In this document: positions 19,584-21,248 of the stretch, piece after piece | Position numbering within the stretch: position 1 is the first letter of the stretch | How the letters are laid out: each line of letters starts with the position of its first letter | NCBI GenBank assembly: GCA_018825385.1 | Contig: JAHJEX010000074.1 | Location: 997-64,996, forward strand | From: Patescibacteria group bacterium | GTDB lineage: Bacteria > Patescibacteriota > Patescibacteriia > UM-FILTER-42-10 | DNA length: 64,000 nt | Direction of reading: 5' to 3' | Made by a program: the position numbers and the translations under genes | The notes under the pieces: generated by a model | Seen by the model: the letters and a program-made list of their open reading frames with translations, nothing else | Database searches by the model: none | Told to the model about the DNA's origin: nothing

Positions 19584-21248
19584 ATGGGAATGCGCAAAAA
19601 GCTTTGGGTCAGCCTCCTGCTAATCGCAGTTTTAGCTGGTCTAGCTGGGTTGGTTGATTGGCCAAAAGGTCCTGATATAAGAATTGGGGATTATTTTAAG
19701 GAGATAAAAGTCCATCTCGGATTAGATTTGCAGGGAGGAACTCATTTAGTTTACAAAGCTGATACAGTCGATATTCCTTCCTCTGAAAGGACAGAAGCGA
19801 TAGAAGGAGTTCGTGATGTTATAGAAAGAAGGGTTAACTCTTTTGGTGTTTCAGAACCGGTAGTCCAGACGAATAAATCAGGCGATGAATACAGGGTGAT
19901 CGTTGAACTTCCAGGAGTAACTGATGTAACTCAGGCAATCCAAATGATAGGGGAAACGCCTTTGTTGGAATTCAGAGAGCAGGCGGCACCAGAATTCGAT
20001 GAAGATCAAAACCAGGCAATGGAAGCTTATAATGCTGACGCAAGGATTAGGGCTGAAGAAATATTGTTAGCTGCTTTAGATGATGCAAACGACTTTGCTG
20101 AACTTGCAAAGGAAAAAAGTGAAGGTCCGTCAGCAGAAAGCGGTGGGGATTTAGGTGAATTTGGCCGCGGTGCTATGGTTCCGGAGTTTGATGAGGTAGT
20201 TTTTGAGAAAGCTGAAGTCGGAAAAGTCTATCCAGAATTAGTAGAAACCATGTTTGGCTATCATATTATAAAGGTTGAGAACAGAATAACGAGTGTGAAT
20301 GATGAAGGCGTGGAGGAAGAAAAAGCTACTGCGCGACACATTTTGGTTCAAATACAGTCTGAAGAAGCTGCGGCCTCGACAAATTATGTAAACACAGGTC
20401 TTTCCGGAAAACATCTAGATAGCGCTCAAGTACAGTTTGATCAGTCCACCGGACAGCCGGAAATAAATCTTAGGTTTAATAGTGAAGGAAAAGACTTATT
20501 TGCTGAAATAACAAAGCGTAATTTAGGAAAGCCTGTAGCAATCTATTTAGATCATGCTCCAATAAGTATTCCAATTGTCCAGGCAGAAATAACATCTGGG
20601 GAAGCGGTAATAACTGGCAGCTTCACATTGGAAGAGGCAAAAATACTTACAAGAAGACTTAATTCTGGTGCACTGCCAATTCCGATTTCACTTCTAAATC
20701 AGCAGAATATTGGCGCAACATTGGGACAGGAATCAGTGGAAAGAAGCTTGTTTGCAGGAATACTAGGGCTAGTTCTAGTTGCCATATTTATGATTGCATA
20801 TTATCGACTGCCAGGTTTACTATCAGTAATTGCATTAACTATTTATTCCCTGCTTGTGCTCGCAGTATTTAAACTGTGGCCAGTTACATTAACGCTTGCT
20901 GGAATTGCTGGATTTATATTATCTATCGGTATGGCCGTTGATGCGAATGTACTTATTTTTGAAAGATTAAAGGAGGAATTAAGACGTGGAAAGCCAATAC
21001 TAAGTGCAGTTGAAGATGGATTTAAACGCGCGTGGCCATCAATACGAGATTCAAATGTTTCATCACTCATTACGTGTGTTATTCTTATTTGGTTCGGCAC
21101 AAGCTTAATTAAAGGTTTTGCAATAACATTAGGAATCGGAATACTGCTTAGTATGTTTTCAGCAATTACTGTCACCAGAAATTTCCTAAGAATTTCTGCA
21201 CTCAAGAAATGGAAGGGTTTTTGGTTGTTTGGAGTAAAAAATAAATAG
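19584..21248 (+). CDS. secD: Protein-export membrane protein SecD with an inserted parvulin (PpiC-type) PPIase domain in the periplasmic P1 region.
   Basis: SecD N-terminal and C-terminal TM blocks ([11 protein letters not shown]..., [26 protein letters not shown]). Residues ~140-225, [40 protein letters not shown]...FGYHIIKV, align almost motif-for-motif with E. coli PpiC/parvulin. Confidence 0.85.
   Translation: [554 protein letters not shown]

Follow-up and report, generated by a model that had tools for sequence, protein, structure and literature searches.

A probable circularly permuted parvulin domain within the SecD protein of a Patescibacteria bacterium and its candidate role as a foldase at the Sec exit

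Introduction

Why should a SecD protein carry a parvulin-type peptidyl-prolyl isomerase (PPIase) domain inside its extracytoplasmic region, and how could such a domain be complete if its first strand, which bears one of the catalytic histidines, is missing from the expected place? These questions are raised by the secD gene within a stretch of DNA of 64,000 nucleotides from a Patescibacteria group bacterium (assembly GCA_018825385.1, contig JAHJEX010000074.1, positions 997 to 64,996), which we call the window. An earlier examination of the letters alone, hereafter the sequence-only reading, had proposed that a PpiD-like parvulin module is inserted in this SecD and that the start motif of a second such domain follows it.

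The answer bears on a wider problem. The manner in which chains exiting SecYEG are handed over from the SecDF motor to foldases is unclear, and prior evidence consists of crosslinks and low-resolution maps of separate proteins, namely PpiD–YfgM and SurA in Escherichia coli, PrsA in Firmicutes and, in Mycoplasma, the Mdp444 dome. A conserved covalent fusion of two functions that reside on separate proteins in other bacteria informs this geometry, as it provides independent Rosetta-stone evidence for a parvulin next to the P1 head of SecD. In addition, the relative placement of the two partners is set by the fusion and can be modelled and tested.

Results

The window encodes a genuine SecD

Every testable feature of family membership was found in the secD product, and we therefore regard it as a genuine SecD. 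The open reading frame (ORF) scores 410.2 bits against the NCBIfam model TIGR01129 (cut-off 244.4), and its matches to the Pfam families SecD_1st, SecDF_P1_head and SecD_SecF_C all exceed their gathering scores. A phmmer search of PDB sequences aligns it with Thermus thermophilus SecDF (3aqp) at an E value of 2.4e-77. Along the protein, the Pfam domains are arranged in the order SecD_1st (residues 75–133), Rotamase (145–232), SecDF_P1_head (271–366) and SecD_SecF_C (370–535).

An AlphaFold2 (AF2) model of the full-length protein has a mean predicted local distance difference test (pLDDT) value of 82.5, with a helix at residues 3–25 and five more at 382–540, and its best Foldseek matches are the SecDF structures 5yhf, 5xan and 3aqp (E 1e-24 to 1e-22). 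The predicted topology is that of a SecD, with transmembrane helix 1 (TM1), a large P1 region made of base and head, and TM2–6 on an RND-like fold. Conservation was assessed in an alignment of 87 homologues (A1), to which all residue counts out of 87 refer. Residue D453, in the segment GMAVDANV, is invariant in A1 and aligns with LGAAVDGNV of T. thermophilus SecDF; we take it to be the conserved TM4 aspartate essential for proton conduction (PMC5974789). The secF gene starts 8 nucleotides past secD, and thus the SecF partner is encoded adjacently.

The database representative listed as 100% identical to this protein (P0001) has glutamate in place of D167 (LDEANDF versus LDDANDF; window positions 20082–20084). 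This single-residue difference indicates that the window comes from a very close strain variant of the deposited metagenome-assembled genome (MAG).

A parvulin domain occupies the connection between P1 base and P1 head

Residues 145–232 match the Pfam Rotamase family (PF00639) with an E value of 5.3e-19 and 69.4 bits, where the gathering score is 21.7, and residues 150–233 match Rotamase_3 (PF13616) with 1e-18 and 68.4 bits (gathering 22.5). E. coli PpiC (1jns) is aligned by phmmer at 5.6e-14, with the blocks GGDLGEF, MVPxFDxVVF and FGYHIIKV in register. By these scores, the resemblance to parvulins lies far beyond chance. The predicted structure shows the parvulin fold, in which a four-stranded antiparallel sheet is packed by helices. 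The insert is a parvulin as judged by its hidden Markov model (HMM) scores, its predicted fold and its catalytic residues; it departs from the canonical strand order, and so represents a permuted variant.

The sequence-only reading was therefore correct in placing a PpiC-type parvulin inside the first extracytoplasmic (P1) region of SecD, and the peptide it quoted is present at 20016–20279. Its description of the insert as a PpiD-like chaperone module did not hold: no SurA_N or PpiD-type Pfam domain is matched at E ≤ 0.01, and the protein contains only the Rotamase families and the SecD/RND domains. The interval it gave, 19990–20290, corresponds to residues 136–236 and covers a part of the feature; the whole insert spans approximately 19983–20369 and the ARHILV strand described below (20331–20348) falls outside that interval.

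The insert comprises about 130 residues and lies in a variable linker that runs from the last N-terminal strand of the P1 base, 'LLEFR', to the start of the P1 head, 'NTGLSGK' (head and base boundaries were taken from the Pfam models and a 2018 review). Native SecD sequence ends at LLEFREQ (residue 133) and returns at about 267–268 (Y268). The P1-base part ends in the strand PLLEFREQ, modelled by AF2 as a strand at 128–133, and P126, L128 and F130 are invariant in A1. In the alignment with T. thermophilus SecDF, chain positions 29 to approximately 117 correspond to residues 39–132 and positions 160–423 to residues 273–536, with the P1 head aligning with positions 160–260. The distance from the base strand to the conserved head segment is thus about 135 residues here versus about 40 (118–159) in T. 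thermophilus. SecD proteins of Patescibacteria that have no insert, such as those of Tagabacteria (L019) and Uhrbacteria (L022), span only 20–50 residues between 'LEFK' and '[YW]xxTxL(S/T)G', and the Uhrbacteria protein has no Rotamase match. These alignments place the insertion site in the variable connection of P1 base to P1 head, and they indicate that the segment is not native P1 sequence. In published work (PMC5974789), the P1 head is a mobile unit that touches precursor proteins with its cavity and alternates by swinging among the Super-F, F and I forms.

The first strand of the parvulin is most likely relocated to its C-terminal side

The match to the Rotamase family lacks profile positions 1–9, which constitute the first strand (beta1) with the first catalytic histidine. 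Likewise, the AF2 model has no strand ahead of the long helix that begins near residue 140. The strand LLEFREQ was considered for this role and ruled out, being the conserved P1-base strand of all SecDs. However, a segment with the sequence ATARHILVQ begins 17 residues past FGYHIIKV. Within A1, A250 is conserved in 78, H252 in 86, I253 in 85 and L254 in 84 of the 87 homologues, and a strict pattern finds the ARHILV motif in 111 of 120 homologues. Mean identity in this strand is 55%, similar to the 51% of the parvulin core, versus 18% and 25% in the linkers on its two sides. Most likely, ARHILV is the missing beta1 of the same domain, circularly permuted to its C-terminal side.

Three further analyses point the same way. 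When the ARHILV strand is placed before the first helix (alpha1), the Rotamase match grows to profile positions 1–96 of 97 and from 74.5 to 79.9 bits, and the Rotamase_3 match grows from positions 33–114 at 73.9 bits to 14–114 at 80.4 bits. A scrambled strand in the same place gives no extension (72.4 and 71.1 bits, respectively). Secondly, hhalign was run with a template of 150 canonical domains, filtered against domains beginning on a preceding beta4 motif, and yielded two non-overlapping alignments in swapped order. Insert positions 17–105 align with canonical columns 47–132 at 99.9% probability; positions 95–131 align with columns 1–41, with A-x-HIL on beta1, at 93.8% and E 2e-7, a score that a residual N-terminal overhang in the template may inflate. 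Thirdly, an AF2 model of the domain alone has a pLDDT of 88.1 and a predicted template modelling score of 0.80, with strand 244–256 at about 94, and both AF2 models contain a long beta4/beta1 hairpin formed by residues 225–238 and 244–256, the turn of which falls within the linker at 233–247.

In the proposed arrangement, the chain would enter the domain at alpha1, pass through beta4 (FGYH227IIKV), reverse in the variable hairpin, supply beta1 (ARH252ILV) last and then exit to the P1 head. A cut in the beta1–alpha1 loop leaves the entry and exit points adjacent, as insertion into a loop of a host protein requires.

The sequence-only reading had noticed the ARHILV-like motif, which is indeed present, but had taken it for the start of a second domain. 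No second domain begins there, as only about 15 residues follow before the SecD head continues. A related proposal holds that ARHILV is left over from a truncated second parvulin repeat, in which case the first domain would be incomplete and without its first strand. The linear order beta4, linker and beta1 of the next domain is shared with free-standing tandem parvulins, and two-unit SecD relatives exist (both are described below). Yet a parvulin without beta1 loses a central strand of its sheet and one catalytic histidine, and a vestige would hardly be as conserved as the core (55% versus 51%) between flanks at 18–25%, with H252 retained in 86 of 87 sequences. AF2 also pairs the strand with beta4 at high confidence, and with only about 15 residues before native SecD sequence nothing is left for it to belong to. 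We consider a vestigial origin of the strand very unlikely, and retain the permuted single domain as the explanation.

The full-text literature that we searched, which has most subscription journals outside its scope, yielded neither a description of a SecD–parvulin fusion nor a paper in which 'parvulin' and 'circular permutation' both occur. As a circularly permuted parvulin, the insert appears to be without precedent. The sequences are public, and they carry precomputed Pfam matches; the architecture is undescribed in the literature searched, and this absence is not proof of novelty.

Active-site residues are largely retained

From the alignment with PpiC and the known active sites of Pin1 and Par10, we take C113, H59, H157 and T152 of Pin1 to correspond to D189, H252, H227 and T222, respectively, and the proline pocket to involve M198 and F202. 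Both H227 and F202 are invariant (87/87), H252 is present in 86 of 87 sequences, and position 222 is always threonine (72) or serine (15). The remaining two positions are less constant. D189 is found in 72 of 87 sequences, and 12 of the 15 others have serine, glutamate or asparagine there; M198 is found in 64, with threonine, phenylalanine, leucine, tyrosine or isoleucine as alternatives. Overall, the residue pattern is that expected for a non-phospho-specific, PpiC/PrsA-like enzyme under purifying selection. The catalytic network is apparently retained and the domain appears to be catalytically competent.

The insert is conserved across a clade of Patescibacteria

All of the 120 best homologue clusters of the whole protein (59–100% identity, 536–586 amino acids) contain both PF00639 and PF13616 inside SecD. 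They derive from NCBI, JGI, ENA and Logan, on contigs of up to 1.3 Mb, and where a source organism is named it is Patescibacteria or Kerfeldbacteria. All are annotated just as 'SecD', which hides the extra function from genome-based reconstructions of Patescibacteria envelope biology.

A species-level survey with one genome per species gave at least 600 SecD loci, of which 80 were classified with HMMs built from A1, and representative loci were confirmed by Pfam. The insert is present at the same site in 21 of the 80. One parvulin unit was found in seven loci (Kerfeld-, Buchanan- and Moranbacteria, among others), two units in 12 (Magasanikbacteria, 'Parcubacteria group' and others), and a degenerate plus an intact unit in two SecDF fusions of Peregrinibacteria (L028 and L064). 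The other 59 have no unit (Nomura-, Ryan-, Taga-, Uhr-, Davies- and Gottesmanbacteria, Saccharibacteria, Chloroflexi and Cyanobacteria). The insert is conserved across a Patescibacteria clade and is not accidental. Genome streamlining, with which the sequence-only reading had found the fusion consistent, is not supported as an explanation by this distribution, as many equally reduced lineages such as the Saccharibacteria and Nomura-, Davies- and Gottesmanbacteria have a SecD without the insert and other lineages have two units.

Given that the sequences derive from MAGs, one could suspect that the assembly is chimeric or that gene calling has joined a parvulin gene to secD. The window, however, has a single uninterrupted ORF in which SecD sequence flanks the insert on both sides, and the same architecture recurs in 120 clusters drawn from many independent sources, as well as in 21 species-level genomes that are independent of one another. 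These are too many independent occurrences for an assembly artefact, which we rule out, and we give practically no credence to an artefact of either kind.

Some titles of the surveyed genomes look unreliable (L004, L011, L013, L018, L020, L021, L026, L038, L045 and also L012). For example, L004 is titled 'Lysobacteraceae' but has a GC content of 0.30, and its title is evidently wrong, and several MAGs titled 'uncultured Gammaproteobacteria ... binchicken' bear a Patescibacteria-like SecD. Among the loci that have the insert, L012 ('Ca. Binatia', GC 0.64) alone is high in GC, and it might or might not belong to a lineage other than Patescibacteria.

Two-domain relatives carry a parvulin nested within a parvulin

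The two-domain SecD loci (L007, L008, L010–L018 and L021, together with the two Peregrinibacteria SecDF fusions) share a layout in which LEFK is followed by unit A (alpha1 to beta4, without beta1), unit B (canonical, beta1 to beta4), a terminal beta1-like strand and TGLSGK. A whole canonical parvulin thus occupies the point at which the window insert has its beta4–beta1 hairpin. The inner domain B retains both histidines in all 14 proteins, whereas the histidine of the A beta4 strand is retained in two and that of the terminal strand in five. Because these latter two have both decayed, we group the terminal strand with outer domain A, which places B inside the beta4–beta1 hairpin of A and also supports the relocation of beta1 proposed for the window insert. 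Serial strand-swapping between units was considered and rejected, given that the terminal-strand histidine persists in 5 of 14 proteins versus 14 of 14 for the inner histidines (Fisher exact p of about 3e-4, calculated by hand).

The outer permuted domain of two-unit SecDs is therefore usually degenerate, while the SecD of the window shows this outer, permuted topology with its active-site residues intact. The 12 two-unit forms from outside Peregrinibacteria also have a conserved Cys...Cys pair in the inner beta1–alpha1 loop (e.g. 'HLLICWQGLTTCAQSR'), which is absent from L028 and L064 and probably forms a disulfide. Such domain-in-domain-in-domain proteins offer a case study of how permutation and nesting can arise from repeat arrays.

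The best-scoring relatives of the insert are tandem-parvulin proteins

A search with residues 133–270 against a library of representatives at 50% identity (1.84 billion representatives) matched 23,593 representative proteins at E ≤ 1e-3. The best-scoring relatives are free-standing proteins with two to six tandem parvulin domains (P0121–P0270; e.g. P0121, P0122, P0128 and P0132). Such proteins dominate the top 150 matches, which include only two SecD fragments, though multi-parvulin proteins rank high since their domain scores add up. They have contiguous beta4, linker and beta1 of the next domain, and align with the insert through the ARHILV strand. Identity with the insert is 40–50%, and the junctions between their domains align with its beta4–hairpin–beta1 segment. 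They differ from the insert in that their domains follow the canonical order and are accompanied by no SecD parts, whereas the insert is permuted and lies within SecD.

A slice taken out of phase from such an array, from alpha1 of one unit to a later beta1, would directly give the two-domain SecD insert. The beta1–alpha1 loop of unit B ('HILICWQG...C...TKEEA') resembles that of canonical tandem parvulins, which argues that B is ancestrally canonical and not a duplicate of the permuted unit. Recombination between A and B could have turned the two-domain form into the one-domain form, or the change could have run in the opposite direction.

Discussion

A candidate foldase in cis for chains leaving SecYEG

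We favour the hypothesis, to which we assign a probability of roughly 0.68, that this SecD, with its permuted and apparently competent parvulin, functions as a membrane-tethered foldase that acts in cis on chains leaving SecYEG. SecD, paired with SecF, would serve as the accessory motor of the Sec translocon driven by the proton-motive force (PMF), and the parvulin would sit beside the P1-head cavity that captures chains as they emerge from SecYEG. There it could bind unfolded secretory chains and catalyse Xaa-Pro isomerisation while they are pulled out. Such a tethered foldase would be comparable to PrsA, PpiD–YfgM or the Mycoplasma Mdp444 dome, with the distinction that it acts in cis.

Action on translocating substrates is suggested by analogy with several published systems. 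PpiD contacts SecD's periplasmic domain and cooperates with SecDF (PMC9643414). In Mycoplasma pneumoniae, Mpn444, a parvulin lipoprotein with PPIase activity, crosslinks to SecD (10.1101/2024.09.05.611430), and tomography in cells has revealed a PrsA-like dome on SecYEG–SecDF with substrate density at an active PPIC domain (10.1101/2025.04.25.650208). Moreover, the P1 head itself binds precursor proteins (PMC5974789).

Several points weigh against this hypothesis, beyond the possible inflation of the second hhalign score. The gain on reversing the permutation is modest, at about 5–6 bits. The placement of H252 beside H227 and D189 is predicted from secondary structure, confidence values and sequence logic, and both the position of the parvulin relative to the P1-head cavity and the PPIase activity of the insert are likewise deduced, the latter from its residues. 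The variability of D189 and M198 means that some members of the family may be weak or inactive enzymes. Furthermore, the P1 parvulin domain of SurA is catalytically dispensable. The same is true of the parvulin domain of PpiD (PMC9643414), and thus conserved residues do not prove that catalysis is important.

These points lend some weight to the possibility that the insert has no catalytic role and serves as a chaperone or holdase surface, or else as a structural spacer, in which case it would bind unfolded chains or partner proteins and isomerisation would be irrelevant. Not only has the functional importance of the PpiD parvulin domain been questioned (PMC9643414), with SurA P1 a comparable case, but D189 (72/87) and M198 (64/87) vary, and the outer domain of the two-domain relatives has been kept despite the loss of its beta4 histidine from all but 2 of 14 proteins, which shows that a non-catalytic role exists in the family. 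Nevertheless, histidines conserved in 87 and 86 of 87 sequences, a position 222 restricted to threonine or serine and an invariant F202 are difficult to account for unless the active site is under selection. The decayed outer domain is also always accompanied by an intact one (both histidines in 14 of 14), such that each protein has at least one apparently active site. On balance we consider a holdase or spacer unlikely, though it deserves to be kept in mind.

A further possibility is that the parvulin acts on SecD itself, for example by isomerising a proline between base and head and thereby gating or timing the swing of the P1 head. The insert lies exactly in the base-to-head connection, what drives the transition of the head from F to I is unexplained (PMC5974789), and conserved prolines are nearby (P126, invariant, and P292, conserved in at least 90% of sequences). 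Yet the same prolines are conserved in SecDs that have no insert, nothing specific supports their isomerisation, and every Sec-associated parvulin known so far binds substrates or acts on them. We judge this role highly improbable.

Proceeding from the foldase hypothesis, one can speculate that the fusion is an energy-coupled folding machine and not a passive tether, in which the parvulin rides on the connection of base to head and the proton-driven swing of the head delivers captured chain segments to the isomerase and strips them off again. We regard this extension as improbable and offer it as a conjecture. If it is true, a PMF-powered cycle of pulling and folding operates in a compartment without ATP, free PrsA- or PpiD-type foldases have been replaced in these Patescibacteria, and the nested two-parvulin forms are elaborations of the same device.

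Genomic context

The coordinates of secD, its parts and its neighbours are given in Table 1. The 64-kb window contains no second parvulin gene. Its Sec components are loosely clustered, with secA and secDF on the same strand. The two small paralogous ORFs are flanked by the pair of FG-GAP and YkuD proteins. A promoter-like site (19510–19538) and a terminator-like hairpin (19490–19506) lie just upstream of secD, and such matches are no commoner than in shuffled sequence. In front of the gene for the 384-residue protein, at 22210–22238, is the region's strongest promoter-like match (11 of 12). The 480-residue protein and the coupling ATPase that follows it may belong to a DNA-transfer or type IV secretion-like module. 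Nearly all long ORFs are on the plus strand, and 31 of the 32 two-kb bins have a positive GC skew, so that the cumulative skew climbs in an almost monotonic way. The entire 64 kb appears to belong to a single replichore, with its genes co-oriented.

Table 1. Features of the window, with parts of secD given as residues and as nucleotide positions
Feature	Positions	Strand	Description
secA	9382–12141	+	SecA_DEAD, PP_bind, Wing/Scaffold and SEC-C motif; 7.4 kb upstream of secDF
Two paralogous FG-GAP-repeat and YkuD L,D-transpeptidase proteins	15563–16990, 18088–19497		Precede secD
Two small paralogous ORFs	17052–17351, 17584–17937		99 and 117 amino acids; similar N-termini, no Pfam match
secD	19584–21248	+	554 amino acids and stop codon; SecD with inserted parvulin domain
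N-terminal P1 base, residues 75–133	19806–19982	+	Pfam SecD_1st, E 4e-18; upstream edge of the insertion site
Whole inserted module, residues ~134–262	19983–20369	+	Parvulin domain, most likely circularly permuted
Parvulin segment alpha1 to beta4, residues 145–232	20016–20279	+	Rotamase profile positions 10–96 of 97 and PpiC 1jns alignment; includes GGD189LG, M198, F202, T222 and FGYH227IIKV
Variable hairpin linker from beta4 to relocated beta1, residues 233–247	20280–20324	+	18% mean pairwise identity; length varies
Probable relocated beta1 strand with H252, residues 248–257	20325–20354	+	Conservation, re-permutation, hhalign and AF2
P1 head, residues 271–366	20394–20681	+	SecDF_P1_head, E 7e-29, profile positions 19–114
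Transmembrane helices 2–6, residues 370–535	20691–21188	+	Pfam SecD_SecF_C, A1 columns, AF2 helices 382–540
secF	21256–22149	+	297 amino acids and stop codon; TIGR00966 279 bits (cut-off 160); SecD_SecF_C, E 4e-54
384-amino-acid protein	22277–23431		N-terminal Sigma-70 region 4 and HARE-HTH; directly downstream of secF
480-amino-acid protein	23441–24883		No Pfam match; overlaps start of next ORF
TrwB/VirD4/HerA-like coupling ATPase	24873–26603		

Comparison with known systems

The SecDF proteins of T. thermophilus and Deinococcus radiodurans (3AQP, 5YHF and 5XAN) share with the window SecD the TM1 helix, P1 base, head, TM2–6 and the TM4 aspartate, the separate SecF of the window is matched too, and pulling driven by the PMF is presumably shared as well (PMC5974789). 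They differ at the linker, which has about 40 residues in T. thermophilus SecDF where the window protein has a parvulin, and the window encodes SecD and SecF as separate genes.

Among parvulins, E. coli PpiC/Par10 (1JNS) is a free, cytoplasmic, single-domain protein of canonical strand order, and another small PpiC-type parvulin (3GPK) was also compared. The insert departs from PpiC in having beta1 after beta4 and a much longer alpha1 (about 26 residues), and in being located outside the cytoplasm within a membrane protein. PrsA, the foldase lipoprotein of monoderm bacteria (6VJ6, 1ZK6 and 4WO7), has a lipid anchor and an N/C chaperone and dimerisation domain that flanks a canonical parvulin; in the window protein the anchor is SecD itself and the N/C domain is absent. 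Of the NCBIfam PrsA models, NF002846 scores 49.7 bits where 361 is the cut-off and NF002827 scores 44.5 where it is 343, with the NF002827 match limited to the parvulin part (157–234) and that of NF002846 spanning 165–286, into the start of the P1 head. The window SecD is thus not a member of the PrsA family, but by analogy it plausibly works like one.

The PpiD–YfgM complex of E. coli (8ZHT and 2KGJ) places a parvulin protein at the periplasmic exit of the translocon, and is the counterpart in trans to which the sequence-only reading referred. PpiD, however, has its own N-terminal transmembrane anchor and SurA_N-like chaperone domains around its parvulin, a layout that the window SecD does not share. 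The PrsA-like PPIC proteins Mdp444/Mpn444 of M. pneumoniae, a genome-reduced bacterium without an outer membrane, reside on SecDF and likewise provide a foldase at the Sec exit. These are separate lipoproteins that form a trimeric dome with chaperone domains, whereas in the window a single parvulin is built covalently into SecD.

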